From: an uncultured Planctomycetales bacterium
GTDB lineage: Bacteria > Omnitrophota > Gorgyraeia > Zapsychrales > CAYRXT01
Assembly: GCA_964428315.1 (NCBI GenBank)
Contig: CAYRXT010000001.1
Coordinates: 18,944-82,943, forward strand
Reading direction: 5' to 3'
DNA length: 64,000 nt
A model generated the notes under the pieces. It saw only the letters and a program-made list of their open reading frames with translations, ran no database searches and had not been told where the DNA came from. Shown one piece after another: positions 4,159-62,300 of the stretch. Numbering within the stretch: the stretch's first letter is position 1; every line of letters begins with the position of its first letter. The position numbers were made by a program, and so were the translations under genes.

Positions 4159-4192
4159 TCCTGCGTGAAAACAGACGGGCTTACCCGGAGAG

Positions 4193-4219: not shown

Positions 4220-4322
4220 GGGCAGAAAGGTGGAAAAAAGGGCGGCGCCGCAAAAATATGAACCAGGTATGGACGGCCGGCCCTTTTTGCGACATAACAG
4301 TATAAGGTTGGGTTTGAGCGTT

Positions 4323-4739: not shown

Positions 4740-4761
4740 GATTTCTAGACGGAGACAAACC

Positions 4762-5112: not shown

Positions 5113-5140
5113 CCCTCCGGGGCGCCAGCTGGGAGAGGAT

Positions 5141-5473: not shown

Positions 5474-5492
5474 GGATCGGGGGAACCTGGCA

Positions 5493-7133: not shown

Positions 7134-7197
7134 AGCGGCCTCGCAATGACAGCAGTTTGGACAGCATTGATTTGGCAGTAATTATGAGGCAGGTCTT

Positions 7198-7503
7198 ATG
7201 AAAAGAAAAGTTTATGGTAACCACCGCGGTCATCCCAAGGGCCAGGTCCTGCTCGAGTTTGCCTTCTGTATGATCGCCCTGATGGTTCTTGTCTACGGCA
7301 CGGTCATGGCCTTCCGCTGGTGCGGCATGAGCCTGGTGGGCCGTTCGTCCGCCCACTGGTCTGTGTTAACGAGGGAAGTCAGAGACGATTTTGAAAATAA
7401 TGATCCTGTAAGGCCTGACACCCAAGTTTCGATAAGCTTTGAACGGCCGGCCAGGGACGGTTTCGACTTTGTCATGCCCAACGACGTCATCTATGGAGAA
7501 TAG
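7198..7503 (+). CDS. tadE: TadE-like pseudopilin
   Basis: 'KG|QVLL|EFAFCMIALMVLVYG' matches the TadE/TadG N-terminal motif. 101 aa. Confidence 0.6.
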   Translation: MKRKVYGNHRGHPKGQVLLEFAFCMIALMVLVYGTVMAFRWCGMSLVGRSSAHWSVLTREVRDDFENNDPVRPDTQVSISFERPARDGFDFVMPNDVIYGE

Positions 7504-7506
7504 GCC

Positions 7507-10629: not shown

Positions 10630-10898
10630 TTATGGCCGCTTTTTGCAAAACAAGATACGGTTCGGCCATGAGCGAATATGCGGTGTTAATCGCAGTTATC
10701 CTTGCCGCCTTTATCCTGATGGCTCCTTATTTGTTGCGGGGTATTGCGGGGTATTGGAAGGAGGCCGGTGACAGTTTCGGCTATGGCCGGATTTATGATC
10801 CCGAAAGAACAGTAGAATGCGCCTATTCGCCTATTGCAGGGGCGTGGTACAGGGTCGACTTGTACGAGGAGTGCGCAAACAATCTGGATCCGTTCTGA
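10623..10898 (+). CDS. flp: Flp-family prepilin paralog (track start GTG 10623; alternative ATG at 10632)
   Basis: MAAFCKTRYG|SAMS|EYAVLIAVILAAFILMA. Overlaps the stop of the upstream gene. Confidence 0.7.
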   Translation: MVIMAAFCKTRYGSAMSEYAVLIAVILAAFILMAPYLLRGIAGYWKEAGDSFGYGRIYDPERTVECAYSPIAGAWYRVDLYEECANNLDPF

Positions 10899-11068
10899 AC
10901 GACTCTGCGTTGTATAGATCCCAGGTGTGTTCCGGTGGCAAAGGACGGCCGGTGCGGTTCAGCCCTGCCTCCCCGGTGATGTCCGGTAAGCGCAAGATTT
11001 TTGTTTGGCCTGCGTTGTTTTTGACAAGCGGACAGGAGTGAAGAAGAATATCAAGGGAGAAAATAGCC

Positions 11069-11929
11069 ATGTGGGTCGTTATAATGGCCTTGACATTCGG
11101 ATCGGTGAGCGCCTTATGCCACTACCTGCTTCTGCCTTCGGTGGTGGAGAAGGCCCGACAGGTCAACCGTAAACGGACGAACGAGCTCTCGGACCGCCTG
11201 GACCGCATGTTTATGCGCGAGCAGACCAGCAAGGTCCTTTTTATGTACACTTTCGGCCCCTTTGTCCTGGCCTTTTTGCTCTTTATGCTGTGTCCGCCCG
11301 AGTTCAAGGCCGCCGGTGTGGTCCTGGGTTTTATGGCTGGCCTGGTCATCCCGATGATCGCGGTAAGATCCATGGAGCAGAGGCGGAGGGACAAGTTCGA
11401 CAGCCAGATGGTCGACACGCTGATGATCATGTCCAGCGCCCTCAAAGGGGGGTTGAGCCTCGTCCAGGCCATGGAAGTTGTGGTAGAGGAAATGTCGGAG
11501 CCGACCAATCAGGAGTTCGGGATCCTTCTTGGGGAAAACAAGATGGGAATCCCCCTGGATGAGGCCTTTGCCCACCTCTACAGCCGCATGCCTTCGGTTT
11601 CCCTACAGCAGGTGATCACGACGATTTTGCTGGCACGGGAGACAGGAGGCAACCTCCCGGTTATTTTTAACCGTATCGTGAACACGATCAGGGAGAACAG
11701 GAAGCTGCGTGAAAATCTTAACAATTTGACGCTTCAGGGCCGGATCCAGGGCGGGGTCATGTCGATCCTGCCGATTGTCTTTGCCTCCATCGTACTTTCC
11801 AGTAATCCCAATTATTTCGACAGCATGTTTAACACGGAAATCGGCCGGACTTTGCTGGGGGCGTGCGTCGCCATGGAGCTTATAGGCGCATTTTTAATTT
11901 GGAAGATTAGCAATTTCAAAGACTTCTGA
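11069..11929 (+). CDS. tadB: Tad pilus platform protein TadB-like (T2SS F-domain)
   Basis: 286 aa with N-terminal TM helices and T2SSF-type core 'SSALKGGLSLVQAMEVVVEEMSEPTNQEFGILLGENKMGIPLDEAFAHLYSRMP...LLARETGGNL'. Confidence 0.85.
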   Translation: MWVVIMALTFGSVSALCHYLLLPSVVEKARQVNRKRTNELSDRLDRMFMREQTSKVLFMYTFGPFVLAFLLFMLCPPEFKAAGVVLGFMAGLVIPMIAVRSMEQRRRDKFDSQMVDTLMIMSSALKGGLSLVQAMEVVVEEMSEPTNQEFGILLGENKMGIPLDEAFAHLYSRMPSVSLQQVITTILLARETGGNLPVIFNRIVNTIRENRKLRENLNNLTLQGRIQGGVMSILPIVFASIVLSSNPNYFDSMFNTEIGRTLLGACVAMELIGAFLIWKISNFKDF

Positions 11930-11951
11930 TAAAACCCCTTCCACCTACGAG

Positions 11952-12887
11952 GTGGAACCGGTCGGTTTGGGGAGGATACGGTTCATGCTCGGTTTTTCAT
12001 TTCTCCTGGCTTTTATTTCGGCTTTTTTCGTGATTTACGGCCTCTTCGGGACCCACACAGAGGAGAGGCCGCATCTTAGCCGCTTTGAAGAGCCCCAGCA
12101 GAGGAGAGCGCCCAGGAAGAGGCACAGGACGATTGTCGGAAAAATGCTGTCCCGCCTGGCCCTTTTTAACAGGCCCCTGTGTCATAATGTTGTTGGCCGT
12201 CGTCTCGCCAGGGACCTGGGGGCGGCCCAGCTGGACATAACCCCGGAAGAATTTATGCTCTTGAAGCAGGTCCTGATCGTCTTTTTGTTCATGGCCTTTT
12301 TCCCCCGGGCGACGCAGGAGACCCTTGTCTTCTTCATCCTTGTCATTATCGGGGGAGGCTATTACATCCCCGAATTCTGGCTGAAGACGAAGGTCAGGAA
12401 GGTGAAAAACGCCATTATCAAACAGCTCCCCGACACCGTAGACCTCCTGAGCCTTTGCGTCAACGCCGGTCTGGACTTCATGCTGGCCCTCAAGTGGGTT
12501 ATCGACAAATCCCCGCCGTCCATCCTGCTCAACGAACTGAGTCTGATCCTTCAGGAGATCAACGTGGGCAAACCCCGTCGGGAGGCCTTGCGGGATATGG
12601 CCAAAAAGTACGAACTGCCCGACCTGTCGACCTTTTCCCGGACGCTCATCCAGGCCGACCGCATGGGGACCTCCATAGGCGACGCCCTGAACATCCTTTC
12701 GGAGGATATGCGTATGGTCCGCTACCGCCGCGGGGAGAAGATCGCCCTGAAGGCGCCCCTGAAGCTCCTTGCCCCCCTTCTCCTTTTTATCTTCCCTGTT
12801 GTGGCCATCCTGGTCGGCGCGCCGATCATCCTGGATTTCATGTCGCGCAGCACAATGGAATCCATGAGCATCCTGACAGGGGGATGA
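11952..12887 (+). CDS. tadC: Tad pilus platform protein TadC-like (T2SS F-domain)
   Basis: 311 aa; 'LCVNAGLDFMLALKWVIDKSP...ILQEINVGKPRREALRDMAKKYELPDLSTFSRTLIQADRMGTSIGDALNILSEDMR'. Confidence 0.85.
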   Translation: MEPVGLGRIRFMLGFSFLLAFISAFFVIYGLFGTHTEERPHLSRFEEPQQRRAPRKRHRTIVGKMLSRLALFNRPLCHNVVGRRLARDLGAAQLDITPEEFMLLKQVLIVFLFMAFFPRATQETLVFFILVIIGGGYYIPEFWLKTKVRKVKNAIIKQLPDTVDLLSLCVNAGLDFMLALKWVIDKSPPSILLNELSLILQEINVGKPRREALRDMAKKYELPDLSTFSRTLIQADRMGTSIGDALNILSEDMRMVRYRRGEKIALKAPLKLLAPLLLFIFPVVAILVGAPIILDFMSRSTMESMSILTGG

Positions 12888-13086
12888 GGTTAGGGCTAAG
12901 AGATAAGAACTGATGTAAAAACAGCGTATTATCCGGCAGGTCTTTTATTCTCCGCGTCCCCTGTCCTTCGCTTTACGCCCTGCGCTCTATGCTCAACGCC
13001 CAATGCCCCCTATTTTCAATACCCAACGCAAGGCCCCATGCTCTCAGCTTAACCCTTCGCACCCTTTCGCCGGCATCTGCCCTTAT

Positions 13087-13120
13087 AGATTGGACATTTA
13101 TGTCCAATCTGATTGGACAT
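13087..13120. promoter_or_regulatory. perfect palindrome AGATTGGACAT-tt-ATGTCCAATCT plus an adjacent third GATTGGACAT copy; candidate operator site
   Basis: Read directly from the sequence. The same (A/T)TGTCCA(A/T)T motif is paired at 101-130 and 2041-2073. Confidence 0.4.
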
Positions 13121-13667
13121 AAATAGCCCCCCTCCCGTAGTCCGTTCTTCTATTTACACCTTATAGGATTATGTTTTTCTTCTAATGATGCCGGTATTTT
13201 CACCCGTGAAACAGTCTTTGTGCCGGGTGTCCCGGCCTCTGCCCGATTGCCTTAAGACCTCCTTAAGTCCCCCAGCGAACACATGAGCCAGTTTGCGGAT
13301 AAACCCGCAATAAACCGCGTCAGCAAAAAAAATCCTTCCAGAATGGAAAAGCGCGCATTTATAATGAGAGTTTTTTGACAAGAGTGTATAAAAATTTCAT
13401 CAGACATAAAATGACCGGAAAATTAAACAGTTGCGAAAAATCAACAGCTCGTACTAATGAAAATAAGAATTTCTCGACGATAAACAAGTTAAAAAAGTTG
13501 ATAATAAGTCGTGGAACCTGTTTGATAAGTTGCACATAAAAAGCGTCCCTGTGAAAGGTCTTGTTAAAAATCGGCATAGGTATGACTTAATAATTTTTAA
13601 ATTAGAAATAAAATTGTTTCACCAACGTAACTAATTGGTAAATATGATGTTAAAAAAATCCGGCCGC

Positions 13668-13696
13668 TTGCAGAAGCATGATTAATATGGTATAGT
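13668..13696 (+). promoter_or_regulatory. candidate sigma70 promoter TTGCAG-N17-TATAGT
   Basis: -35 at 13668-13673, -10 at 13691-13696, in an AT-rich spacer. Confidence 0.35.
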
Positions 13697-13702
13697 TATA
13701 AC

Positions 13703-13886
13703 GCAAGAACGGAGTCAAAGCATAGGCCGGCAACGGCTTATGGTAGCCCTGAACCCGGAGTGCTAAAGGGAAAGCCACGGAAATGATCACTTTTTTGCAG
13801 ACAAAAAAAGATTTTGTCTTCGCATTATATTTTAATAAGAATATAATGGGCTGCCATACAGGAATGACTGGCAGCCCTTTTTGTTT
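13703..13886 (+). ncRNA. candidate ~180-nt small RNA or terminated leader between the Tad locus and the giant gene
   Basis: Bounded by the promoter above and an intrinsic terminator. No ORF of 60 aa or more lies within it. I cannot assign a family by eye. Confidence 0.3.
13848..13886 (+). terminator. rho-independent terminator
   Basis: GGGCTGCCA (13848-13856), 12-nt loop, TGGCAGCCC (13869-13877), then TTTTTGTTT. Confidence 0.6.
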
Positions 13887-14347
13887 GCCGCCCGTCGGGA
13901 ACCTAGGACTGACGGCGGCAATAGATCATTCCCGGCACAATCATTAAAGAAGGCATCGGCCGGGACAAGTCCCGAGCGCAAGCGAGGGCGCAAAAAAAGC
14001 CACGGAGAAAGCATTGGTAATTTTTTCTACAAACAGCGCGCGCTGTTTTCAACCGCTTCATCTTTTGGACCCGGATAACAACTTCTGTTGTTGTCGGGCT
14101 CTCCGAACGCCATATGATCTTCCCCGCGGCTGGACGCAGATCCTGGTTCCGTTGTTTGAATTATTAAGAGGATGGACCGCGGTATGGCTGCCCGCCATTT
14201 TCACCGATCCGTACAGGCCGGCTCCGGTTCTTGCGAAAACCCATGCCGTCAGGCCGAACCGCGTGTTTTTCCCTCAGGGATCAGAAAAGAACAATCTCAA
14301 TGTCCAGACTGGATATTTATGGGCATTGAGACAGCAAAGGGAAATGG

Positions 14348-17300
14348 ATGAACGTTAAAGAAGACATATTCGGGCCCAGGCCCGAGCCCCCCGAGGAAGG
14401 GCAAAAGCCGTTCAAAAGCCGGTTCAAGGGCTGGATAAGGACGGTGGCCTTGGTCCTGGTGCTTGTCTTTGTCCCGGACCAGATCAGCTGGGCTCTGAAC
14501 TATAACCCGGCGGTCCTCTGGAAGGACCGGGCGGCCCATTATGTCAGTCCGGACGCCACCCGGGATGAAAAGATCTCGGCCGAGATCGCGGCCAGCGTGG
14601 AAAACCTCCTGCGCCAGGTCGCCTATAAAGAAGAGCCGCGGATCAGCCTGACCCTGACCGATTTGTCCATCACCGACCCTGAGCTGGCCAAGCGAGACCT
14701 CCACATCCAGTCCAAAGAGTTCTTCACCAACGCCCGGGTGCGCAGGTTCTATTCCTGGATACGGGCGAAAACAACCTATCCGCTCAACTGCGCCGTCTAC
14801 GCCCTGCGCGACCTTCTGACGCGGCACGATATCGAAGCGCCCCTCATGGACCTTTCCGTGGTCACCCTGATGGTCGACATCATGAACAACGTCATCCACC
14901 CCAACGACACCCGGCTGAAGACCTCGCTGTTCGCCCTCGCCAAGGTGGCCGAGGCCTACGGCCTGCGCTTCAGGCCCGCGCGCCTGCGGCCGGTCGAGAT
15001 CATCCATCTCGAAACGCCCTTCATCGCGAGCCTGGAAGACGAGCATTTCGTCATGGTCACGGCCTTTGACGAGGACAACGTCTTCTACACGGACATCGGC
15101 CGGGCCATGATGCTCAGCAAGGATGAATTTTCCGGAAAGCTCACCGGCTATGTCCTCGCCGATGAAGGTAAAATTAAGGAGAAGAAGATCGTCTCCGACG
15201 CCATGTCAGCCTTTGTCTGGGGTTCCAAGTGGCACAGCAACGTCGACCAGCTTCCCGGCATGACGAACACTCAATTCGCGATTACCGCTCTGGTCAAGAT
15301 TCTTAGCGCCCTTGCTGCCGGAGGCGCCCTAGGCGAGACCGCGGGCAAGCTCGCGGGCAGTGCGGAGTGGTTCGTCTTCAGCGAGGGCATTTCGGCTTTG
15401 GCGAATGGCATTACTACGGCCAAGATCCTCAGCGGGGAATGGAACGCGGAGGACGCCCGCGCCTTCGCTTCGGTGCTCGGCACGGCGTTGGTCGTGGGCC
15501 GCCTGGCCGCCGGTTCGTACCACGATTCCGTCATCAAGGACGGGTTCCAGTGGAAGACCTTTTTGGGCAACTTCGCCAAGGGAGGCGTCATGGGTCTCGG
15601 CAAGGGCGAACTGACCAAATGGATTACCGGCTTCTTGGAACGGCATATCAAGACCAAGGATCCGATCCTCAGAGAAGCTATAATAAGCACCGTCTCCTCC
15701 ATCGCTGCGTCTTTTGCCATGGCCGGCATGATCAAGGCGGCGGGCCTGAGCAAACAGTTTGGATTTGTACACCAGGAAGGAGAAAATACGACCGAAGGCG
15801 CCGGCAAGAGCCTGGTCAAGGTCGAGGCCATGGGCCTGGGCGAGATCCTGGAAACCGTCCTTATCAACGACGCCCTTCCCCTCCTGCTCACCGAGGCCGT
15901 GGGCACGGCCTTCCGTCTGGCGCATCGCGCCCAGGGCGGGGACCCCTTCAGCCGCGCCTCGCGCTCCATGGGCGCGCTGGGACGCTCGCTGGCCGCGGCG
16001 GCCTATAACGCCTACCTCCGTCCGGCCAACAAGATCGTGTCCAAGGACGGACAGGAAAAGGGGTCGATCAAGAGAGAAGGGGAGGATACGGTCGTGGTCA
16101 GGACCGAACGGGAACTGACCAAAGAGGAAGCGCAAAAGATTGAAAACGGCGAAGAGTTCCGCAAGACGCTTTTTGACAAAAAGGGCCGGGCCTACGCCTT
16201 CCTCGTGATCAAAGACGGCAAGGCCATGGTCAGCGAGGCGGTGTCCTGGGAAAAAGGTGAAAAAGAAGACGGCAGCACGCCCTCCGGCCTCCGTGACACG
16301 CGCTTCCTGACGGTTGAGGCGAAGCGGGATGAGGATAAAAAGAAAGAAAAGGAGCCTTACTCCAAAGGTGATGTGACCGTCGAAAAAAGGATAGACAGGG
16401 ATACCGGCGGCGTCCGGTATGTCCTAGTCAAAGATTTTACGTTCAAGGAGAACCCCGACGGTTCCCTGCCCTCCGGGTTCTGGCAGGAGTACACCCAGTT
16501 CGGCGCCTGGCTGAACGACGATTACCGCGGCGGCCTGAAAAACGTCATCGCGTCCCTCGGCACGGGGCTGACCCATTATCTCGTGTCCAAACAGCTTGAC
16601 GACATCGAGGCCAGGAACGTCGGCAAGGGCATGAACAAGGAAGAGTTCACGGCGGTCGCGTTTTTGACGACGATGTTCTCGGCCGGTTTCGCCGGGGCCC
16701 TGATCGACGAGATGGGCCTGGGGAGGGCCTCCGGCCTGCGGAAGATCGAGACCGTCAAGGTCGACGCGGACCGCGACGGGGAGGAAGAAAGCCGGCAGGT
16801 CTACGAGAAGGACGACGGAAACGGCAAAAAAGTCCGGGGCGTCCTCCTTACCACAAGGCGGGGCGTAAACGAAAAGACAGAATTTATTCCCGTCACGGAA
16901 GACGCCGAAACAGGCGAGGTCGCGCTGGCCGAATCCGGACGGGAAGAGGTTGACGACCTCAAAGACGCCGACAAGGACGGCACGCCCGACGGCTATTCCG
17001 AGGCGACGGTCCTCCTCACCGGCAGATCGGCCAGGGATTTCTTTGACAAATTTCTCCAGCTCTCCGCCCTCCAGCTGCAGGGCATGCTCCTCAACCGTTA
17101 CGTCGGCGTGGGTCTGAACCCCTTTAAAGACATGACCGCCTTCGGAAGCCCCGAGATGCGTTCCATGCAGAGCCCGTTCTTTTTCCGGTACATGAACAAC
17201 GTGACCAAGGTCCAGGAGGCCTCGGACGCGGCGGACTTCATCGTCCAGAAGGCCGGGCTGACCGACGACCTCCTCCTGCAGATGAAGGCCCGCAAGGAGC

Positions 17301-50300: not shown

Positions 50301-53300
50301 AAGGGTTGTATGGATTCGGCCCGGCGTCGGTCGCGGGTGATGTGACAGGTGTGCGAGGTGTGCGCACGCGGAACAGCAGTGCCACAAGTGAAAACGGTCC
50401 AGCCATCCGGGTTACATCGGGCGTTGACGAAGCCCCGATGGGCCGAAAAGGCGGTATCCCGAGTGTCTATACCGGAAACGGTACAGGCGCGGAGGCGTTC
50501 TTTGGTGGTGTCAGTTTTGCAGGTAACAACGGTCAAGATCGGCCTGTGACAACGGCGACGGTACCTGTCGTCCACGGCTGGAACGGATTGACCGGCGGGG
50601 TTACCGGTGGTTCGGGAAGTGCGTCCGGTCGGAACGCGGGGAGATCCGCGGGACAATCGGGCCGGAACCTGAGAGATGTTCCAGAAAATCTCAGGTTCTC
50701 TGGTGTTTCCTCCACAGGCGGCCAAGCCACGGACTACCGCTATAACAGCGGCAGAGAAAGCCGGGAATCCGGGACAGGGACAACAGGCATCCCCACGGAC
50801 GATGCCGGGGACGGCGAAGCCGGTCCCGAAGGGTCCAGGGCCACAGTCACGGGAGGATCGCGAGGAAAGGGTGTTACCCGAGGTTCGATTCGTGTGTCCG
50901 GTACCGAAACGGTCCATGAGACCGGAATGGCTGCCGGCGAAGCCTTTAATGCGAATCGGCCCCGCACTGAAGACAGTACCGTCCGGCATGACGGACCAAA
51001 TGAAGTTGTAAATAACCCTGTGAGCCGTTTAGGAAACAGAAGAAACGGTCTGCAGGAATTTTCTGTATTCCCCACAGACGTCATTTCCCTCTACAGCGGG
51101 TTCGATTTCTCCCGTATTTTCCAACGGATATTCAACTCAATCAAACTGTCGTTGCGGGCCCTGAAAGGGCCAAGCGATGACACAAGCCACGGAGGTGCGC
51201 GATGGTTTACCCAAAGCAGAACTTTACGGACATGGATCTCTCGCACGCGGTCGAGTTTCCGGAATGCGATGTCTCGGTTAACACGGGCCGTGAGCGTTCG
51301 ACAGGACGAACGCGGATCTTCCTCATCTTCCATCACACGGGCCGGGCGTTCGCCCGTTACCGCAACGCCTGGTCGCCTCTGGCGAACGATGACGCGCGTC
51401 TTGTCCTGGCCCTCGCGGCGAGCTCAGATATCCCGCGCTATCGCGCTTCCGGCAGTCCTGATAGCCTTATTCTCCAGTAATGAAGCCGTGGCGGCCGGCG
51501 GGCTTCCGGCCGAAAACCTTCATTTGACCCCGGCCGGCCTGGCGGTGTTCCTGGCCCTGGGCGCGGTCGCGCTGGGGATCTACCTCTATCATGCCGCCAA
51601 TAATGAAAAGGCGCCGGGCCTGTCCGGAACCGGTCTGATCATGCGTGAATGGCTTTACGGCGGGGCAGATCTCCTGGCGCTTGTCGGCAGTGACCCTGAA
51701 ACGGCCCGGGACGTCCTGAAGACGCTCGAGGCGCTTACCGGCGAACCGGGCGCGGCAGGAAAGAATTTCCATGATAAAGAGGTTTATTTGAGGGCCCGGG
51801 ACACGTTCTTCGCTGATCTGGATTCCCGGGGCGTTACCTGTGAAGAATTGGAGCGTCTGACCGCCTCTCTCAGGGAAACAGCGGGCCTGGCCGGTGAGGC
51901 CCGAGAGGAGGAGACCGCTGAGGTTGTCCGTTACGCGCGAGAGGCGCGGACCGGCGTTTCCATGGCGAAATGGATCGGATGGGCGGCGGTCGCCGGGAGC
52001 GTCATCGGCCTGCTCGGCCGCATTGTCCTGGCCGGCCCGGTTGACGCCGGCATCCTCTGGCTGTCCGGCAGTCTGACCGCGGCCGGGGCGGCCATCCTTG
52101 TTGCCGACCTGACTGCCGGGCGCTGGGAAGGCATCAGGGATTCCCTGGAGAGCATTACGGACCGGTTGACAACCGGAGACGCCCGATTCTTCCCGCGCAT
52201 CCGCTATTCGAGGAAGACCCTGGCCCTGGTCATCGGCCTCATGATGGCCGTGCTTGCGGCCGGGATGGTCGGGGACGCCCTCCAGTCTCAGGAGCCATGG
52301 ACAACCACGGACTCCGGATACGTGAATGACGCCGCCGCCGGGACCGCGGGCGGCAGCGCGGCAGGCCCCGCCCCCGAGAACGGAGAGGGCAGGGAACCGC
52401 CGGATCCCGAAAAGACGCTCTCCCGGAACGCGGACGAACATCCCTTGCGGCGGGACCAGGACGTTGTTTTCGCCTCCATGGTGGATTGCGAGCTGGCGGT
52501 TAAACTCGCCGTGAAGTCCGTGACATGGGTTAAGGATCTGGTGGAGAAACTTCCGTTTGTTGATAACCCAGGGCGCGCGACGAGGTCTTATGAATCATGG
52601 ATCATTCCGGAAACGCCCGGGTCATGGCTCCGGGTTCAAAATGTGCACGGCAATACCGTTTATAACGCGAACCTCAACGGGATTGATTCATTCCAGTGGG
52701 ACGGCCGGGACAACCAGGACCGTGTTTTGCCCCAGGGCGTCTATCCCGCCCGGATTCGGGCCGGAAACAAGGAGTTCGGCTTTAAGTACCTTATCTCCGG
52801 AGATGATTTGGCAAGGGCCGCTTACGCCGTAGCCAAGAAAGGGACGATCAAGGCCTTCATCCCTGACCTCTTTGCGCAGGGTTTTATAGCGCCGGTAAGC
52901 ATGGCCGTTTCACCCGAGATACTCGTCTTGCTGGAAATGGAGAGGCAAGCCGCAAAGAAGAATTCCTTGGAAGATTCGCTTGCGCGGTCCCGGATGAGGG
53001 ACCTCTCGCCGTACGGTTACATTTACGACATGATGGGCCGGGAAAACCTCGAGCCGCGGGATATCCAGAGGATCGCCTTTCATTTCAGCGAACTTATGGA
53101 GAGCGAGGACGTGGAAGGCTTCAAGACAGCCGCGGACCTCTTCATGCCACGACATCAGGCGATCCTGAAGACGGAAGGGCATCGGCGGCTCTTCTGGCGT
53201 TTCTGCGACATTAACGCGGAGTTCCTGAATTGGATGGCCTGGAGAGAGGACCTTATGGTGAGCAGCGCATTCTTCCTCAAAGGCGCCGGTGAATGGCTGG

Positions 53301-56300
53301 CCGTGATTGAAGAAAACGATGAATCTGAAACGGCCGCGCGCCGTCTGGGACTGCCCATCGAAGAGAGCCGCAGTGTCGGACCGGGGATGACAGAAGATTT
53401 AACAGGGATGAAAATGGCCCAGGCCTCGACGGGCCGATACCTGGTGGCGGCCAACCTTTACAGGGCCCTCCCCATCTTGACAAGGAAGCAGATAAACCGG
53501 TTGGCCGGCGGCGTTATCGACCATGTGCGCTTTGTCCTGACCGGAGAAAACGCGCAAGGCGTCATTGAACTTTATCCGGTCCAGGCGCCCGAACCCTGGA
53601 CCTACGCCCTGGCGAAGGTCCCGTCAAATTCTTTCTTCGGTGATGCCAGATACCGCGATATACATACAGACTGCGTCACGCACGAAGCCGAGCATTTGTT
53701 CAAATATAACCGGATGGACATGCCGCTTTACATGAACACGGAGGTGGCTTTCAACGGCGGGTACATCCGGCTGGGGCCGGACGTCGTGCTTATGCGCGCG
53801 GTAGCGGTTTCCTTGTATAACCACTTCACCGGAAAGGACATGGTCGAGCCCGGGACAGCCTGGCAGGGGAGGCCGTGGCTCCAGTATCCGCATTTTGAGG
53901 AAGGCGGCTGGGCCGACTGGCAGGGGAAATGGGGCGGCTGCGTCGATTCACTGAGAAATTATATTGCGCGGAAAGCGGAGCGTGAAATCGTTTCCGACCG
54001 CAACTCTGAGATCGAAGAGGCCATCGCGGCGTACAGCCGCGGCCGGGATCTTTACCGCCTTTCCATGGGATACAGGGAATTCCTGGAGGAAAAATACGGT
54101 CCGGCGGCCGCGCGGTTCGGCGCGGACGTCTTCTTTGAATGGGTTAGCCGTTTCCCGGTCCTGGACGCGGACGTCGACACCTTGAGCCAGAAAGGCGTTT
54201 ACGGGCTGAGCCCGGCCGGGGCGGCGGTGGCCGCGGAGGCGACCGCGCGTTCCTATGCGTCGGACATCAGGGATATCTTCGTTGATGTCTGGAAGGGGAT
54301 ACGGCTTTGGAGCCATCAGGGCGTGACACCCGAGCAGGCCGCCGGCCGCGCGCGTTCGGCCTTTTACCGGACCTATGTGCCGGTGATCGTGGAAACCGTC
54401 AGAAGTATGAACGTCCCGCTGAGGGCCGAAGGGGCTCAGCTGGATTCTCTCGTCGGAGTTGTTATCGAAAAATTGGAAGATTTCGCGTATACGGGCGGCG
54501 ATATGTTTGACCCGGCTGTGCCGATGGATATTGCCGACGCGGCGGTTGTCGCGGCGGTGCTTGACGAAAATATCGGGCACAACTACACCGTGGACAACGG
54601 AGGTTTCAGTGTCATGGCCGATTCGCTGGACGAGGCTGAAGGAAAACAAGTGGCGATGAGCGCCGCCGGCGAGGCCGTTTTCTGGCAGGAGGACCCCGTC
54701 CCCGGCGAGCCGGGCCCGCTGCCCGTTGTCCCGGGGCGGCAGAACTTTATCGTCAGTTCGGTTTTCCTGACGGCAAACTGGATCCGGTCAATGCTGTCTC
54801 AAGACGCGCGGGCCCTTGACAAGACCTCCTCCGCGGCCGTGGAGGGCTTCTTTTACACGCCGCTTCCCGACGCCGATAATGTCGTCGAGGATACGGCGAT
54901 GACGGCGCTGTTCCGGGACAAGGTCTCGGAGATGGGCTGGCCGCACCCGTATCTGTTCCGCGCGATCCCGGTGTTTTACGTGGACAGCCGGACGGCGGAT
55001 TCCCTCGGGGTGACATGGGTCGGGCCCTACGAAGACTTCACGTCAAATGGATTCTCCCCGGAGGCGGACCCGGACCAGGACAGGGTTGTTTGGGCGCCGG
55101 TGGTGGACGGGATGTGGGGCGGACCGGGTCCGGCTCCGGAGTACCAGGACTATTACGACCCGGACAACCCGGATTACGACATGGCCGAGGATTATTCGGT
55201 GAGCCTGGCCGATACGGTTACCGGCGAGATGTGGGACTTCTGGTATTTCCGGGTGGATGTCCACGGCAATTATTACGCCTCGGCAGTGAAGTACTGGGGG
55301 CCGGGCAGCTGGCGGGGAGACGGGATCAGCACCTGTCAATATCCGGGGATCCGGGGCGCCGGGACACCGCTGGGCGCCGGACTGCTGACGCAGGAAGAGA
55401 TCCTGCGGGCGCGCGGAGGAGACATGGACGCGGTCACCCACAAGCTGATTTTCGCCTGGCCCTATTCCAGCAGTGAGATGAGATGGCCGGCGACACGCTC
55501 CGACGGGTGGAGGAGCGCGGGCGAGGGGATACCGGAAGGAACACTCTTACAGCTTGACCCGGGACATGATTATGAGCCGTATATCCGCCATTTGTCTTCC
55601 GAAGAAGACAGGAACGTGGCCCTCGCGCTGATCCGCGCGCTGAAGACATACGGCGCGGTCTGCGTGGACAACGGCGGAGGGTTCGGGATCATCGTCGAGC
55701 AGGTGGACGGCACGCACGCGAAACTGAACCCGGACTGCCTGGCGGGGATCAACCTGGACAAGTTCCTGGTCGTGGCGCCGGAGAGTTTCCCCGCGGGCCT
55801 GGCACTGGAGCGGAGGATTGATCCGGAGGATCCCCTTGAGGGATATAAAGAGGTCGGTATTGAGCTGATTGTCAACAGGGACGATCCGGCGGCCGCCTCG
55901 AAGGTCCGCGCCGAGTTCCGTTCGCTGGACGGCGAAAGCCTGGTGGAAGACAACAGGCACTTGATGCGGATGAACCTGGCGGCGGGTGAATTCGCGTGGC
56001 AGGACATGGGAGACGGCCGGGCGCGGATCGCCTTCGGGGTGGAGACTTCCAGCCGGGGCGGGGCGGAGAGCCTCATGGCCGACACGAGATACATCATGCG
56101 CCTGACCGTGGAGGACGGGCGGGGCGCCGAGAGCTATCCGCTGATCCATTCCTTCCGGTCGCCGGCCGTGGCGACGGACGTGGTCCCGGCCGCGGACGGT
56201 GACGGCGAAGATGGAGGAAATCTCCCGCAAAACTACCCGAACCCGTTCAATGCGGCCACGTCGGTGTGGTATGAGGTGCCGGAGGCCGGGCGCGTGGAGC

Positions 56301-59300
56301 TTAAGGTGTACACGGTCTCCGGGCGGGAAGTGAGGACGCTGGTGGATGAGTACCGTGAGGCCGGGCAGTACAGCGTGGTGTGGGACGGGCGGGATGATTC
56401 CGGCAACAGCGCCGCCGCCGGCGTTTACCTGTACGTGGTGAGGCTTGACGGCAGGGTCATCGCGTCGAAGAGGATGACGCGGATGGCGGCGCAGAGGGAC
56501 GGCCGGCAGGGATGGCTGGGAAGCCTCAAGGACCTCTTCAGCATCTCTGAGGCGAGCGCGGCGGTCGAAAATCGGTACGCGGCGGCGCGGATGAAGGCTG
56601 GACCTTTCGCCCTCGAGCCGGCCGAAGCGGCCGCGCGGGCGGTCAACACGCCGGAGCCCGCCGGTCAAAACGCTGAAGAAGGCCGCGTCAGCCTGACGCT
56701 GGGGGATGTTTACGAATATATTGACATGCTCAGGGATTACAGTGACGGGCAGATACAGGGATATTTTGACATGGTCCCGGCGCTTCAGACGGCGGAGGTA
56801 TGGGAGGATTACGCGGTCATGGTCCGGATCCTGCTCCGGGAAAAAGGCGTTGCCGGGGACCCCCTGCGGTATGAACTCTTTGCCAGCCGGCCGGAAGGTC
56901 CCGGGACCGAAGTCGTGCCGGCGGTCTCCGAAGAGGAGGCCATGGATATCCTGACCGGGAAGAAATACGCCTACGACACCTTGGCCGTCAAAAGACTGTA
57001 CAAAGAAGTTATCGAGGAGCATCAAAGCAGGATGGTCCGCGACCCCGGGCTTTCGCGGCTGGAGGTCTTCCTCATGCGGTCCCAAAACATCACGCCGGCC
57101 GAGGGGCCGGAGGCGCGTTTTGGGCGCTTACAACGGACACACGCGGACGATGAGTTTGTCTCGGCCAATAGGCGTATAACCCTTTATGGTAAGGACATTT
57201 TCCACCCGACATACATCCTGGACATAAGGGGAACCGAAGTTGTGCTTAATGTGAGCCTGAAACCGGTGTTCCAGACCGCCGCGGCCGAACAACTCCTTGG
57301 GAAAATTGATGCCCGCGGCGCCGAAACCCAGGCGCTGGATATGGTGGACACACTGATGATATATATGGAAACCGCCTGCCGGGCGGAAGAGGCCGGGGAC
57401 AGGGAAAGCGCCCTGATCAACTGGAAACACGCGCTGTGGCGCGCGGAACAACTGCAGAGACTGCCCCAACCATCCTTCAGGTGGTGGTATTACGAATTCG
57501 CTGAGGACCTTGTCGATTCTATCAGGCAGTATATCCGCCGTCATTATGAGGCGCCGGGCCGGGGTATTTGGGATCGGCCCGGAGCCGTCCTCCACGGTTG
57601 TTTAAAAGGAAAGACGGGGCCGGCGGCCGGTTCGATCGTGATGAGCCTGGCGCCGCTTATGGCGCGCGCGGCCGATCAATTGGCCGGCGCCTTTGCCCAA
57701 AAGCGGCCATCGCGGGAGCCATCTATTAAAGATATTAATGGAATTATTAAGAAAATAGACGGATTAAAGGCAAGCGTGACCAGGGAAATAGCATCTCGAG
57801 AAGATGAAAGGAAGGTTAAGGATGCGAGGAAGAAGATTTATGCGTTGATATCGAAACTATACATTTACGCGTCAGAAAGCAATATCGGTATCGAAGGTTT
57901 TAAGAAGGAGGCCTGGAAGCTGATCGACCTCGCGGAGTGGGGCAACATTAACGTCAGGATGAAAGCCAGAGATCAATTACGAAGTATCTTGAACAAGAGG
58001 ATCCCGTCCATGAAAGAAGATCCTCGGCATAAAGATCATTTGGATGAAATAAAAAAGATCGAGAAGGAAATGAAGAGAATTATTGATGAATTTGATAATC
58101 GAGGCAAGAAGAGCCCCCGCGGATGTGCCCCGGCGCCTTCCATGGTCAAGACGGTCCTGCGGGCGGCGATGAATGGAGTTCAGTATATCCTTGCCGGCCC
58201 CGAGCTCCAGGCGGCGGAGGCCGCTCATGCCGCCGGGGACAAGTTCTGGCAGGATGTGGCCGCGCAGGGAGAATACAACCAGGCGGACATCGACGAAATG
58301 GCGCGGGTCACCGACAGCCTGTGGCTCGCCGCGGACCTCCCCTCGCCGGATGACGTGGAACAGGACTTGGTGCCGGCCCTGAAGACGGTCTCGACCGCGG
58401 AAGATTCCCTGGAACTGGCCCGGTCGTTCCTCTCGGCATGGGAAGTGGAAAAATTCAGGTTTCAAGACGCAAGGCAGCATGTCCTTTTCTCGCGGATCTT
58501 CGCCGCCCCGCTGGCCGCCGCTGACAGTATGCGGAGGGTTTTGAGCGGAGACCGCGGGACAGACAGGATAGAAGATGTCCTCGGCGAAGGCTGTGCTCTG
58601 GGCAGGCCTTACGCCGGGGCCGTCCTGTCCCGTATTTTTGAAGAGACGGCTGTTGATGTGCTGGGGATGGATTTGCCGGGGCATGTCTGCGTCTTTGTTG
58701 CCCTGAACACGGAGTACGGGTTTATTTATGACCCTTCATCGCTGACAACAAGCCGGGTCTTCCGTCTGGCGCGGTACACGGAGAAGGCGGGAGAGACCTA
58801 TTACTTCAAGGAGGCGTTCTACACCGAGGTCATGCCCGAAGGGTGGGCACCTGACAGGGATATATACACGGAGTTCCGGCTGTTATCCGTTGAGAAGTTC
58901 GCGGCAAAGATTCTGTTCAATATTGGCACTTACTATCTTGACCTTGATGCATTCTCAGCAGCGGCGGATTATTACAGACGAGCGCTGGCCGTGGATTCGA
59001 CGGACGCGGACGTCCTTAACAATTTGGGTAACGCTTATTTCAATCTGGGCGAATACGGGGCCGCGGCCGAACAGTACACGGCGGCGCTGACCTATAATCC
59101 CGAGAGCATTGAAAGCCGCAAATATCTGGCCCTGACCCTTGCTGAGCAAGGCAAAAAGACGGAGGCCATAATCAATCTTAAGGCATACCTGGGCGAACGG
59201 CCCGACGATTATGCAATGATGTTTCAATTGGCCCGTATGCATACGGCGAAGATTTGGATGATTTTGGGGACTTTTTTGGCCGCTTGTATCGTGGTCCTGG

Positions 59301-62300
59301 GAAGAAAACTCGGCGGACGGAACAAGGGCCGCGGCGACGGGAGCCAGGACCGTAAGGCGGGGGCGCCGGATAACGGGCGAAAGGGAGAAGACACTCATCT
59401 CAAAGCCGGGATTGAGATTGAGGGGCCGGCCGCGCGGATCATCCGGACTGTCCGCGGGTGGATGAGGAAGCTGGTTTTCAGGCGGTATGCTTCGGACACT
59501 GTTAAGGCCGCGCGCGAGAGGGCGCCTCCTGTCCGGAAGATATTCTCCCGCCTTGCTGCTTATTTTACTCAATCCCAAAGGACAAATTCCGCATCACAAG
59601 CCAATGACCATATCGAATTTTTAAATCCCAAACGGTTTCGGGCTTTGACATTTTTGACGTTCCTGACGGCCTTCTTCTTCAGCAGTGACCTGCTGGCGGC
59701 CGGGAACGCGGCGGCGCAGGAGGCCGCGCGGTCTTCCGGCCTGGAAGGCCTGGTAATCCTGCTGGCGCTGGGCGCGCTCGCGCTGGGGATGTACTGGTAT
59801 CACGCGGCAAGAGATGAAGAAGAGCCGGGCCTCTCCGATACCGGCGAAATCATGAGCCGCTGGCTTTACCAAGGGGAAGACCTCCTCGCGCTTGTGGACG
59901 GCGATCCCGACACCGCCGCGGAAGTCCTCAAGGTCCTCGAGGTGCTGACCGACCTGACCGGATTGAGGGGCGCGAAAGATCCCAAACTTAAAGCCGTTTT
60001 TGAAAACGGCCGTGACCAGTTCATGATTGCTCTGGACCGGCGGGGTCTCGGGCCGGAAGACCTGGAGCCGGTCATGGCGTCTCTCAAGACGTCAGCCGGC
60101 AAGGCCGCGCGGACTTTGCGTAATGAAGAATCCGTTGAACCCGCCGCGCGTAAGGATGAGGTAAGGCAACCCGTAGACCCCGGCGAATTTTCTCTGGCGA
60201 AATGGCTGGGCGGCGCCGTGGCCGCCGCCGGCCTCGTCGGACTGCTCGGCCGGCTGGCCCTGGCCGGAACGGCGGAAGCCGGCATCCTCTGGCTGGCCGG
60301 GGGCATAATTGTGGCCGGGGCGGCCACAATTCTCCTGGACCTGATTGTCCCGCGGTGGGATGACTTCGCGGAGGGCCTGAAGCGGATGAACGATCCGGAG
60401 TGCCGGCCGGAGCCGGTCCGGGGCGCGAGCCCGATGAAGCATTTCTGGCGCTGGACCGGCATCATCGTCCCGGTCCTCGCCGCGGCCGCGTTCCTGGCGG
60501 GCGTGATTTCGGTCCCCGCCGCCTTTGTCTCCGCGTTTTTCGGGCTGACGGCGCTGTTCGTCAGCTTCGGCTACGGCCGCGAAGGCGGTTCCTACATGAG
60601 CGGCGTGCGGCATTCCAGGGTGTTCCGGTTCGGCATGGCCCTGATGGCCGGCCTGCTCGTGATCGGGGTGTTCGCGGGCGGGGCCGACGCGCAGGACATG
60701 GGGCGGGTCGTCCAGGTCGACTACGACCGCGACGGGTTCGACGACATATCGGTGAGGCTGCCCGAGAGGGCCGGGCTCCACAGCCTCGCCGGCAAGGCCC
60801 CGGAAAAGAGCGTCTCCGAGCTGGAAGAGTTCTTTGCCGGGAACCCCGGTGTCATCGCGATGGTCCGCGAGGACCTCGCCCGGGACAGCCTGAAGCGGAC
60901 GATCCGCGATTCGCTCGACACCGAGGACTTGTACCGGGGCACGCTGGATTCGCTGGCGGCCGCGAAGACCGAAGAACTGGCCAAGTACAACCCCGGCACG
61001 GACCTCGGGGCCGACGCCGCGCTGGCCAGGAAGATGCGCGGCATCGTGCTCGACGAAGAGGCCGAGCTCCGCGCGCGCGAGAGGATCTCCCGCGACCCCG
61101 AGGCCGCGGCCGCTGTCGAGGTCAACGACGAGGCAATCAGCGAGGCGATTAAGCGGACCGCGGCCGCCGTGGACCTGCGCCACGTCTGGCCCGTCCGCGC
61201 CGAAAAGCACGGCCTGCCCGTCAACGACCTCTGGATGGCCTACGCGATCCTGGGCGGCAACTTCCCCGACATGACCGGGGACGAGATCAGCGCCACGGTC
61301 TATCGCCTGTTGAAAGAAAACGACGATTTCGGCGCCGCGTTCACGGATTTCCTGGAGAAGAAAAAGGCCGGCGCGGCCGCGGACGAAGAAGAGGCCGCCC
61401 TCAAGGCCCTCGAGGTCACCTTCGCCGACAACCCTGATATCATCCCGTCCATCGTCCGGACCTGGAACGAGCGCCGGGAATTGCTGGAAACCTATTTCTC
61501 GGACCTCGGCGCCTTCGGCAAGTTCACCCGGGCCGTGATCATGCAGGAGAGCGGGTTCGGCACCTACGCGACGAGCCACAGGTTCGACAGCTCCGGCAGG
61601 AAGATCCCGCTGGCCAAGGGCCTGATGCAGATCATAGACGCGACCTATGCGGACCAGAGCGGGAAGCTGGGGCTCGGTCCGGACGTTTACCACCGTCTCG
61701 ACAACGTCCGGGCCGGTACCGATTATTACGCGGATCGACTCAGGGATTTCCGGGATATCGAAATGGCCCTGGCCGCGTACAATTACAGAGCTTATAAGGT
61801 CGCGGCAGCTATTGCCGAAGCCAAAGGCATTTTGCTGACTGTCGCGAAGGAGAGTTTTACAGATTTGATAGCCGGAGGAAATATTGACGCTTTTCTGGAC
61901 GAGAACAGGGATTCCTTTAGAGAGTCTCCTGAAGAGATCAAGGCCGCGGCCGAACATCTGTCTGCCGATATGGCCGGGTTAAATGCGCTGCTGGGCATGA
62001 CGGCGTCTGATGCAAAGCGCGATAAGGTCACCAGGAAGCTCGCGGCGCCCAGGGTCTTGGAGATGATCGCCGAGGGCTCGCTGAAACCCAGTTTTGGGGA
62101 GACCGTTTCTCTGCTTCCCTCCGAGACCCAGAATTACGTGCCCAGCATCCTCCACATGTACGGCCGTGCCGTCGAGTACGTGGAGGCCAAAACCAGCGGC
62201 AGGCCGGCCGCCGTCAAGGCGCGGCCGGGAGCGCCGGATTACAGCAAATATATTCCGACAGAAGAGAGCCGGACTTACGACCCCGCCCTCGAGATGAGGG

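Follow-up and report, generated by a model that had tools for sequence, protein, structure and literature searches.

The giant open reading frame found in the 64-kb window (the whole stretch of DNA analysed) carries an internal, complete T9SS type A sorting domain (CTD) of the FlgD-Ig beta-sandwich type. The domain is situated at positions 56213–56485 of the + strand (aa 13962–14052, approximately 90 aa) and closes an embedded cassette of about 550 aa, nt ~54827–56485, made up, in this order, of module, spacer, linker and CTD. On balance, we favor the view that the giant gene took up the gene of a whole secreted protein, or the mature portion of it, and that the CTD is the leftover end of the captured gene, not a working export signal. 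The giant gene itself is a member of an already described kind, the Omnitrophota peptidase C39-class giant membrane proteins; the new detail is the termination of a module-spacer-linker-CTD block by a CTD.

The stop-free frame extends from position 14330 to 64000 (+ strand; 16,556 codons, 49.7 kb) and is open at the window edge. The giant open reading frame, 14348–64000 (+), starts at the first ATG, has at least 16,550 aa, and its 3′ end lies beyond the window. The first-pass annotation placed the sorting domain about 7.5 kb before the end of the reading frame, but because the frame runs off at 64000 this figure is the distance to the window edge, and the true distance is at least 7.5 kb. The N-terminal 1200 aa match only Candidatus Omnitrophota C39 proteins (E-values of 5e-78 to 8e-44). 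The N-terminal hydrophobic segment is at aa 38–56, and a Peptidase C39 domain (14918–15157, +; PF03412, 29.1 bits; cutoff, 22) is found close to the N-terminal membrane anchor. OmpA, HATPase, GGDEF, M50, TPR and SLT domains are present as well. The TPR repeats (58934–59239, +; TPR_1, TPR_2, TPR_8, TPR_11 and TPR_16 over their cutoffs) and the SLT lytic transglycosylase domain (61529–61825, +; PF01464, 44.1 bits against 21.3) are downstream of the CTD and in frame with it, thus the internal position that had been noted for the domain, with translation running on, is correct.

Two T2SSF genes (TadB/TadC or GspF-like) are located just upstream of the giant open reading frame at 11069–12887 (+; PF00482, E = 9e-17 and 2e-13). 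These are part of a Tad/T2SS-like locus, which also includes a small gene faintly matching Class_IIIsignal. This small gene is present on an independent Logan contig, which covers the upstream genes together with aa 1–7,244 of the giant protein. Domain content and context fit the published Omnitrophota giant proteins (10.1101/2023.11.21.568195; 10.64898/2026.06.07.730766), among them the 24-protein PF03412 architecture cluster (10.64898/2026.06.07.730766). Shared features are a length above 16 kaa, a C39 domain at the N terminus, close to a membrane anchor, many membrane helices, an upstream T2SS/Tad-like locus with class-III-signal genes, and GGDEF, HATPase_c, TPR and SLT domains. In contrast, the architecture is not that of the dockerin-type 'Archaeovorin' cluster, since the part of the giant open reading frame within the window has no dockerin, TSP3 or SecA domains. 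The main texts of 10.1101/2023.11.21.568195 and 10.64898/2026.06.07.730766 do not mention a T9SS-type or FlgD-Ig domain. A search of 5.8 billion proteins, GTDB genomes and JGI metagenomes yielded no orthologous giant gene.

The nt segment 56225–56490 (+ frame) encodes the peptide PQNYPNPFNAATSVWYEVPEAGRVELKVYTVSGREVRTLVDEYREAGQYSVVWDGRDDSGNSAAAGVYLYVVRLDGRVIASKRMTRMA, and the sorting-domain signature that had been read in it is borne out by profile searches. The NCBIfam model TIGR04183 (T9SS type A sorting domain) scores 29.3 bits (curated cutoff, 23) and covers profile positions 2–68 of 72, and Pfam FlgD_ig (PF13860), the best-scoring Pfam model, gives 45.4–56.7 bits against a cutoff of 27. 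Of the two models proposed for checking the signature, TIGR04183 thus recognizes the domain but Pfam Por_Secre_tail (PF18962) does not, with 19 bits against a cutoff of 27 and a match to the N-terminal half only. An HMM trained on the C-terminal CTDs among the database matches gives 114.6 bits (E = 1e-37) for residues 13962–14052. A HMMER scan of 1.84 billion representatives shows 233,478 matches, nearly all on the same ~87-aa stretch. The match is far above chance.

The sequence displays the characteristics of T9SS type A CTDs, i.e. an Ig sandwich of ~80–90 aa with the NYPNPFN motif in the first strand, a W-D-G-x-D loop, GVY-x-Y and a K-[KR]-M last strand. An AF2 model shows a pLDDT of 95–98 over residues 25–100, with strands through ...RVIASKRMTR; the last strand is formed and confidence is low beyond it. 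In Foldseek, the best PDB matches are FlgD Ig-like domains (3osv, E = 1e-4; 7eha; 3c12), together with the CTDs of PorU (6za2) and PorZ (5m11). Unlike flagellar FlgD, however, the giant protein displays neither the FlgD N-terminal part nor a flagellar context. We conclude that the flagged stretch is a genuine and complete member of the T9SS type A CTD/FlgD-Ig family, capable of folding.

CTDs of this class normally close secreted proteins of Bacteroidota-type bacteria and are almost always terminal. Among single-copy best matches, 83 of 87 CTDs end 20 aa or less from the protein C terminus, and a canonical K-x-M-x-L-L-K/R tail ends each of the 16 matches of the initial search, whereas the CTD of the giant protein is followed by at least 2,504 aa. 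The annotated rule that the domain normally sits at the extreme C terminus is right for single-copy proteins but needs a qualifier: 40 of 149 best matches are tandem proteins with 4–15 internal FlgD-Ig copies (e.g. P0023, with 14 matched stretches), and P0090 and P0136 form a conserved family with an internal CTD. The latter proteins consist of a CarboxypepD_reg-like domain, the internal type A CTD and a C-terminal domain of ~250 aa; the gene is on an 892-kb contig, and a second metagenomic protein conserves the arrangement. A type A-like CTD in an internal position is therefore not unique to the giant protein, although P0090/P0136 are only ~440 aa long, keep an intact K-M-x-L-L strand and are unrelated to the giant protein beyond the CTD.

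The tandem proteins are in agreement with another reading, where the domain is an ordinary Ig-like building block recruited independently of the module, and the secreted-protein layout is coincidental. Within the FlgD Ig-like family, some domains are indeed internal and form spacers, and a second FlgD-like domain is found 1,150 aa upstream in the giant protein itself. We consider this reading rather unlikely. The flagged CTD has the NYPNPFN strand and a full last strand, and is closer to single-copy terminal CTDs (45–60% identity) than to tandem FlgD-Ig repeats (~30%). Motif, identities and the terminal position of 83 of 87 relatives together suggest a derivation from the terminal class.

The upstream domain is a distant FlgD-Ig/CHU_C-like beta-sandwich at 52595–52771 (+), with 26.7 bits for PF13860 and 24.5 bits for CHU_C, both short of the cutoff of 27. 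It had been annotated as a second, weaker copy of the sorting domain at 52590–52800. A FlgD-like domain is indeed present there (with position 52590 off the frame by one base), but as a type A CTD it is rejected: the PF13860 score is just below cutoff, TIGR04183 gives no match at E ≤ 1, and the NYPNPFN motif is absent. It shares 28% identity with the first copy and gives 20.1 bits with the purpose-built HMM, over core strands only. This HMM finds no further CTD copies in the 16,556 aa.

The block closed by the CTD resembles a mature secreted protein in layout. Its first part, at 54827–55774 (+), is an uncharacterised extracellular module that aligns with P0054, P0173 and P0174 and carries the conserved motifs RGAG, H-x-x-FA, PA-x-[KR]-SDG, PEG-x-x-LQLDP and AL-x-x-YG-x-x-x-DN-x-G. 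GTDB genomes contain 177 relatives of the module and JGI metagenomes 254; none was found in Pfam or PDB. A Pfam scan of 32 of the relatives shows other domains of extracellular or carbohydrate type only. The module is followed by a spacer and an acidic Gly/Asp linker (…VATDVVPAADGDGEDGG) at 55775–56212 (+); the linker residues that were modelled with the CTD in AF2 have a pLDDT of ~60.

A 524-aa protein, P0054, has a comparable order. It displays an N-terminal hydrophobic signal-like segment followed by the module, an Fn3 domain and a type A CTD, and a GH31-like gene adjoins. Positions 13611–14052 of the giant protein and 130–523 of P0054 align in a single collinear BLASTP HSP of ~440 aa (E = 8e-29) that spans module, Fn3 spacer, linker and CTD, with the spacer and linker of the giant protein opposite the Fn3 domain and linker of P0054. 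P0054 ends one residue past the point where the giant CTD finishes, and this collinearity with a protein that stops where the CTD stops supports reading the CTD as a fossil gene end. The order module-spacer-acidic linker-CTD, as in a stand-alone protein that ends alike, and the low-confidence, Ala/Glu/Pro-rich sequence that begins just past the last strand also argue against an independently recruited Ig-like block.

There are differences. The ~550-aa block shows no signal peptide, whereas P0054 possesses one, along with a stop codon of its own; P0054 is from an unbinned 4.2-kb contig. Identity to the block is 27% overall (~30% in the module, ~45% in the CTD), which is no closer than that of other family members. 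As P0054 is related to both parts at the family level only, the shared layout could have independent origins. In the other relatives examined, the module lies in short open reading frames (for the JGI set, the median from stop to stop is ~386 aa), and the module-plus-CTD layout is rare among them: 0 of 78 GTDB loci and one weak case in 80 JGI loci, plus P0054. The distance of P0054 and this rarity would suit independent recruitment of an Ig-like block; together with the spacer, for which a Pfam search gives no Fn3 call, they weigh against a capture.

In the favored capture, a secreted-protein gene, or its mature part, would have been taken in frame into a growing Omnitrophota giant gene, with the CTD as a fossil of the earlier 3′ end of the captured gene. 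We infer this history from the comparisons above. The proposal of an ancestral gene boundary created by fusion is thus retained in part: a former gene end gains support from P0054, collinear and with the same end, but giant-type sequence is present on both sides. Membrane-rich paralogous blocks at 51536–52129 (block A, +; aa 12403–12600) and 59747–60361 (block B, +; aa 15140–15344) flank the cassette and share 50% identity in self-BLAST (E = 5e-47). A simple fusion of two neighbouring genes is therefore rejected.

These flanking paralogs also speak against an artefact, i.e. the loss of a stop codon after the CTD or the joining of a foreign T9SS cargo fragment into the contig, which we regard as very improbable. 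The Logan contig does not span the block region, the GC content of the block is somewhat high (0.655 compared with 0.594), and its tetranucleotide distance from the mean of the open reading frame is at the 99th percentile; this distance fits a foreign origin, yet leaves some room for a chimeric assembly. However, a chimera would require two in-frame joins, and the frame is open for another 7.5 kb with TPR and SLT in frame, where an unconstrained frame at ~60% GC is expected to show a stop about every 30 codons. Synonymous codon use in the block is typical of the open reading frame (61st percentile), no start codon, RBS or intergenic signature is found after 56485, and giant open reading frames of the C39 class are already established.

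The CTD sorting signal is probably unused: at least 2,504 aa follow it, and T9SS genes are reported to be absent outside FCB phyla (PMC11285876). In the CTD tail, position −3 is Arg (found in 2 of 156 sequences; consensus L) and position −1 is Ala (1 of 156; consensus K/R). C-terminal motif residues matter for T9SS secretion (PMC11285876). On the other hand, five of the seven tail residues (KRMTRMA) agree with those of P0067, whose true C-terminal tail reads KRMTLMR, the mid-strand Lys is kept, and T9SS can cope with short extensions at the C terminus (PMC11285876). Because the tail is mostly kept and such extensions are tolerated, we only infer the loss of signal function. At present the CTD would most likely serve only as a rigid spacer or contact module of the Ig type, and a role in type IX export or cleavage is probably lost.

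The first-pass annotation alternatively suggested a processing site in a polyprotein-like precursor. In that case C39, M50 or another protease would cut after the CTD, and the released enzyme-plus-CTD fragment would be exported or surface-attached in a T9SS-like manner. C39 and M50 peptidase domains are indeed in the same open reading frame, and West-Roberts et al. suggest that C39/S8 domains might cleave giant proteins (10.1101/2023.11.21.568195); the CTD is complete, with a tail near real ones, and is followed by a probably flexible segment. However, no T9SS gene is found in the 64-kb window, T9SS genes are reported from FCB-group phyla only (PMC11285876) while the closest relatives of the giant gene are in Omnitrophota, and none of the papers searched reports a T9SS in Omnitrophota. 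In addition, a cleavage motif is not recognisable, the tail departs from the consensus at two positions, and the block, which lacks a signal peptide, lies between membrane helices of a single polypeptide. The suggestion thus finds no support and is highly unlikely.

These helices bound a loop of ~2,300 aa. The first, aa 12630–12648, is located after block A and shows five K/R before it and none after; the second, aa 14973–14991, is directly after the TPR repeats and shows one K/R before and five after (a Lys/Arg-rich C-flank). By a crude hydropathy and charge count the loop, which contains the CTD, the second FlgD-like domain and the TPR repeats, is predicted to be extracytoplasmic. Within it, an orphan region (56486–58933, +) follows the CTD in frame and starts with Ala/Glu/Pro-rich sequence; its first ~22 residues, the extent of the AF2 model, have a pLDDT of about 50–70. 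No relatives of this region were found in 5.8 billion proteins, GTDB genomes and JGI metagenomes. It contains a low-GC (0.41), Lys/Ile/Glu-rich patch at about 57725–58025.

A close terminal CTD, that of P0160, shares 56% identity with the flagged CTD and is labelled Planctomycetota, which bears on the donor lineage of the CTD.

The domain at positions 56213–56485 (+ strand), amino acid positions 13962–14052 of the giant open reading frame, is a T9SS type A/FlgD-Ig domain, referred to here as the CTD. Its match to TIGR04183 spans profile positions 2–68 of 72 and, at 29.3 bits, exceeds the curated cutoff of 23; its identity as a T9SS-type sorting domain, proposed in the first-pass annotation, is thus largely borne out. 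The other model named there, PF18962, gives 19 bits against a gathering score of 27 and its match spans profile positions 2–35 of 75 only; several genuine terminal relatives likewise carry a PF13860 annotation alone. PF13860 (FlgD_ig) matches the CTD with 45.4–56.7 bits (gathering score 27), and the NCBIfam model of the PorU sortase C-terminal domain matches as well (E-value = 7.5e-11). A HMMER search with a 1200 aa query against 1.84 billion representative proteins shows 233,478 matches, nearly all to query positions 565–651, i.e. the CTD.

An AlphaFold2 model, computed from the CTD and 16 homologous tails, has a pLDDT of 95–98 over residues 25–100. Six DSSP strands and the N-terminal NYPNPFN segment form a seven-stranded Ig-like beta-sandwich, with strands reaching ...RVIASKRMTR and low confidence beyond. 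Foldseek against the PDB places FlgD Ig domains at the top (3osv, E-value = 1e-4; 7eha; 3c12) and also finds the CTDs of PorU (6za2) and PorZ (5m11). The protein is not the flagellar hook-cap protein FlgD: NCBIfam FlgD equivalogs give at most 35 bits against cutoffs of at least 230, the FlgD N-terminal family is absent from Pfam scans of the whole giant open reading frame, and there are no flagellar genes in the window.

The frame holds at least 16,556 aa and is open to the end of the window; the CTD stops at amino acid position 14052 and is thus confirmed as internal. That such a domain is normally C-terminal holds for the single-copy class, but the FlgD-Ig fold also occurs internally elsewhere. 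All 16 matches of the first protein search carry the CTD at the very end, with a K-x-M-x-L-L-K/R tail. Among the best 149 CTD matches of the representative search, 87 are single-copy, with 45–60% identity to the CTD of the giant, and 83 of these 87 end within 20 aa of the C-terminus. Proteins with tandem internal FlgD-Ig domains (4–15 copies) make up 40 of the 149 and share approximately 30% identity with it. By its sequence, the giant's copy belongs to the terminal class.

Four single-copy matches have the CTD at an internal position. In two, P0098 and P0138, 60–90 aa of low-complexity sequence follow a normal CTD tail (…RRMVMLQ-EARS… and …SRMVLLR-ETGS…). Both resemble products of faulty gene calling or of stop-codon read-through in the assemblies they come from and were left out of the true internal cases. 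The other two, P0090 and P0136 (the latter on an 892-kb contig), form a small conserved family in which the internal CTD is genuine. They show a CarboxypepD_reg-like domain, an internal type A-like CTD with an intact K-M-x-L-L strand, and a C-terminal domain of approximately 250 aa (locus L081, 4001–5329). In this family a CTD is naturally internal in a gene other than the giant one. A further protein, the 416 aa metagenomic P0033, displays two full type A CTDs (positions 52–135 and 332–413), each after a near-identical leader; it looks like two tandem paralogous genes that are fused or were called as one.

A single open reading frame of at least 16,550 aa (14348–64000, + strand) takes up the entire right-hand 50 kb of the window. 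The + frame is without a stop from position 14330 to the end of the window; it counts 16,556 codons, its first ATG is at 14348, and it is thus longer than the 10,000 aa in one frame that is the mark of Omnitrophota C39-class giants. Long minus-strand open reading frames within 14348–64000 are all shadows of it. The 7.5 kb previously given as the distance from the CTD to the end of the reading frame is in fact its distance from the end of the window, and the open reading frame runs past that point.

Pfam scans of the whole giant open reading frame show, all on the + strand, Peptidase_C39 (PF03412) at amino acid positions 197–276, OmpA at 1820–1905, two HATPase_c and two GGDEF domains at approximately 7000–8700, Peptidase_M50 at approximately 11309–11454, a weak CHU_C/FlgD-like domain at approximately 12762–12811, FlgD_ig at 13986–14037 (E-value = 2e-15), TPR repeats at 14869–14970, and SLT at approximately 15734–15832. 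The sequence mixes domains that are usually cytoplasmic (the HATPase_c and GGDEF pairs) with periplasmic or extracellular ones (OmpA, SLT, FlgD-Ig) and the intramembrane M50 peptidase. A hydrophobic segment (positions 38–56) is found near the C39 domain. The N-terminal 1200 aa match only partial C39 proteins, and all of those that are named are from Candidatus Omnitrophota or Omnitrophica, the affinity shared by C39-class giants. Upstream, at 11069–12887, are two T2SSF (TadB/C-like) genes. A Logan contig, an independent assembly, covers the first 7,244 aa (21.7 kb) of the giant gene and carries a small upstream gene with a faint Class_IIIsignal match. The giant gene thus has the upstream T2SS/T4P/Tad-like locus with class III signal genes that is characteristic of the C39 class.

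Omnitrophota giants have been described with C39 near the N-terminus, a conserved T2SS/T4P-like locus with class III signal peptides upstream, and GGDEF, HATPase, TPR and SLT domains (West-Roberts et al. 2023, 10.1101/2023.11.21.568195). The giant open reading frame agrees with these in C39, upstream locus and domain set, and also agrees with the 24-protein PF03412 architecture cluster of a 2026 Omnitrophota preprint (10.64898/2026.06.07.730766). It differs from the dockerin-type 'Archaeovorin' cluster, which shows dockerin and TSP3 and a SecA-related domain near the C-terminus: Pfam gives no matches to Dockerin_1, TSP_3 or SecA in the 16,556 aa within the window, past which the C-terminal part of the giant extends. 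T9SS-type or FlgD-type domains are not mentioned in the main text of West-Roberts et al. (2023) or of the 2026 preprint. Thus the giant gene as a whole belongs to an already described kind, and the embedded CTD block is a new detail.

The CTD is the last part of a larger block, approximately 54827–56485 (+ strand), which consists of a module (54827–55774), a spacer with an acidic linker (55775–56212), and the CTD. Only one top match, the 524 aa P0054, extends beyond the CTD. A single BLASTP HSP (E-value = 8e-29) aligns amino acid positions 13611–14052 of the giant with positions 130–523 of P0054. P0054 displays a hydrophobic N-terminal leader, an uncharacterised module, Fn3, a linker, and a type A CTD ending in KKMCLLR; its gene adjoins a GH31-like gene. 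A multiple alignment that includes two more proteins with the module, P0173 and P0174, extends the module similarity upstream to approximately nt 54827.

The module carries the motifs RGAG, H..FA, PA.[KR]SDG, PEG..LQLDP and AL..YG...DN.G. PEG-x-R-LQLDP, PA-x-K-SDG and YG-x-x-x-DN-x-G are near invariant in 54827–55774 of the window and in its relatives (loci L002–L079 and L082–L161). No Pfam model covers it, profile searches of the PDB give no credible relative, and an AlphaFold2 model from a 4-sequence alignment has a pLDDT of 30. There are at least 177 relatives in GTDB species genomes, mainly of Actinomycetota, Planctomycetota, Verrucomicrobiota and Chloroflexota with a few in Bacteroidota and candidate phyla, and 254 more in JGI metagenomes. 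The open reading frames that bear it are short (median stop-to-stop length approximately 386 aa among the JGI relatives). The partner domains among 32 homologues scanned with Pfam are only fn3 (found twice), CBM96, CWB2 and dockerin (once each), Big_7 and similar domains. The module is a candidate for a new carbohydrate-active or cell-wall-active family. In P0173, from a Lacipirellula MAG (locus L004, an 8,729-bp contig), the module is followed by dockerin-like repeats and then by a PEP-CTERM-like tail (…PEPAALGMVAIAGCGVRAFRRGRRA), assigned by eye and not from an HMM; so read, this tail suggests that the sorting tag joined to the module varies between lineages and phyla.

With module, spacer, acidic linker and CTD in order, the block in the giant open reading frame apparently corresponds to a complete mature secreted protein. 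It begins after a Pro-rich linker, without a counterpart of the hydrophobic leader of P0054, and has neither signal peptide nor stop codon; the only N-terminal membrane anchor of the giant is 13,900 aa away. A secreted-protein block was probably absorbed in frame into the giant gene, and the CTD would mark a former gene end. The suggestion of an ancestral gene boundary in the first-pass annotation finds support in this form, as an absorbed block within the giant gene, but not as the junction of two neighbouring genes. The identity to P0054 is family-level (approximately 30% in the module and 45% in the CTD, where other CTDs reach up to 60%), the module-plus-CTD layout is rare (no case at 78 GTDB loci; only the weak L085 among 80 JGI loci), and Pfam gives no Fn3 call for the spacer of the giant. 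For these reasons, single-unit capture is no more than the most economical reading. No giant open reading frame was found among the module relatives at these 78 GTDB and 80 JGI loci.

A secreted-protein layout that ends in a near-always terminal domain is a concrete seam inside a giant gene. The seam suggests that whole genes for extracellular proteins were absorbed in frame, which gives a modest but helpful hint at the way giant Omnitrophota genes come together. Should further giants also contain such 'fossil gene ends', these could serve to map gene assembly and trace the origin of the pieces.

The same arrangement could result from an artefact, either a chimeric insert or a lost stop codon. 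The codons that follow the CTD tail are GCG GCG CAG (AGG...), with no decayed stop and no new start, and loss of a stop codon is rejected as the main explanation. For a chimeric insert, two joins would both have to fall in frame. The block stands out in tetranucleotide composition (99th percentile of distance from the mean of the open reading frame) and has a somewhat high GC content (0.655 vs 0.594 ± 0.052); both also fit a foreign origin, and its synonymous codon use, at the 61st percentile, is typical of the open reading frame. The Logan contig stops short of the block, at 21.7 kb. However, the frame remains open for 7.5 kb past the CTD with TPR and SLT in frame, and paralogous giant-protein blocks lie on both sides of the region. 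A small doubt remains.

These paralogues were detected in a self-BLAST of the giant protein only after it was split into pieces. Two membrane-rich blocks, amino acid positions 12403–12600 (51536–52129, + strand) and 15140–15344 (59747–60361, + strand), share a 50% identity (E-value = 5e-47). This segmental duplication brackets a loop in which the CTD block and TPR repeats lie. Tandem DNA repeats are absent from 50–64 kb. A 1000 aa query across the CTD gives matches to the CTD only, and the 807 aa downstream of the CTD have no match in GTDB genomes or JGI metagenomes.

Scanning for hydropathy and counting the charges on either side of each helix gives five K/R before and none after the helix at positions 12630–12648, and one K/R before and five after the helix at 14973–14991. 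By the positive-inside rule these charges would make the approximately 2,300 aa loop between the two helices extracytoplasmic. On this crude count the loop, which contains the two FlgD-like domains, the whole CTD block and the TPR repeats, is predicted to lie outside, and the SLT domain after the last helix is predicted to lie outside as well.

T9SS cargo proteins carry an N-terminal Sec signal peptide, and their CTD is removed by PorU as the cargo is attached to the surface or released. The CTD of the giant is not at the extreme C-terminus; at least 2,504 residues follow it, and the sequence across its end reads ...KRMTRMAAQRDGR... The last strand of type A CTDs bears a conserved C-terminal motif with a mid-strand Lys, hydrophobic residues and a basic end. 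The tail of the giant's CTD, KRMTRMA, compares with a consensus of K-K-M-V-L-L-K; its K, R/K and M, like its T and second M, fall within what is acceptable. At tail position −3 the giant has Arg, found in 2 of 156 relatives, where 95 of 156 have Leu; at −1 it has Ala, found in 1 of 156, a place that Lys or Arg takes in 120 of 156. The tail is nevertheless near to the genuine terminal tail KRMTLMR of P0067. Residues of the C-terminal motif matter for secretion, short C-terminal extensions are tolerated by the T9SS, and T9SS genes are reported as absent outside FCB-group phyla (PMC11285876). No T9SS family is seen in the upstream open reading frames of the 64 kb window, which show T2SSF domains instead, and the literature searched gave no report of a T9SS in Omnitrophota. 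The CTD probably does not act as a T9SS signal in the giant. This loss of function we infer rather than observe, since the tail is so near to that of P0067, extensions are tolerated, and 64 kb of the genome are seen. A TIGR04183 match outside the FCB phyla or away from the C-terminus is no evidence of type IX secretion.

The first-pass annotation also offered a processing site in a polyprotein-like precursor, which finds no support. The protein's own C39 and M50 peptidases would have to free an enzyme fragment ending in a functional CTD. This fragment would then be recognised either by a CTD-dependent export or attachment system, in a phylum not known to have a T9SS, or by T9SS components on the surface of a host or prey cell of the Bacteroidota/FCB type. 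We consider this very improbable.

As to the source of the domain, the named CTD matches include Melioribacteraceae, Bacteroidota and KSB1, and P0160, among the closest terminal CTDs with 56% identity, is labelled an S8 peptidase of a Planctomycetota MAG. With one close named match in Planctomycetota, an FCB donor is not claimed.

The second, weaker copy of the sorting domain that had been reported is present at 52595–52771 (+ strand), but its likeness to a sorting domain is distant, with 28% identity to the CTD. PF13860 gives 26.7 bits, slightly below the cutoff, and TIGR04183 gives no match. An HMM built here from terminal CTDs matches just the core strands, with 20.1 bits, and there is no NYPNPFN strand. 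The same HMM finds no further copies in the 16,556 aa.

The upstream region (1–14300, + strand; locus L001) contains orphan open reading frames of 621, 546, 101 and 1040 aa that display no Pfam match; the 621 aa frame shows HTH_Tnp_Tc3_2 below threshold. Small pilin-like genes, one with a faint Class_IIIsignal match, lie in a stretch of lower GC content at 2001–4000 (GC 0.48). The 64-kb window contains no tRNA genes. Within the giant open reading frame, a sharp low-GC patch at 57725–58025 (+ strand; GC 0.41 vs a mean of 0.59) encodes a Lys/Ile/Glu-rich and probably helical stretch (…KKIDGLKASVTREIASREDERKVKDARKKIYALISKLYIY…).
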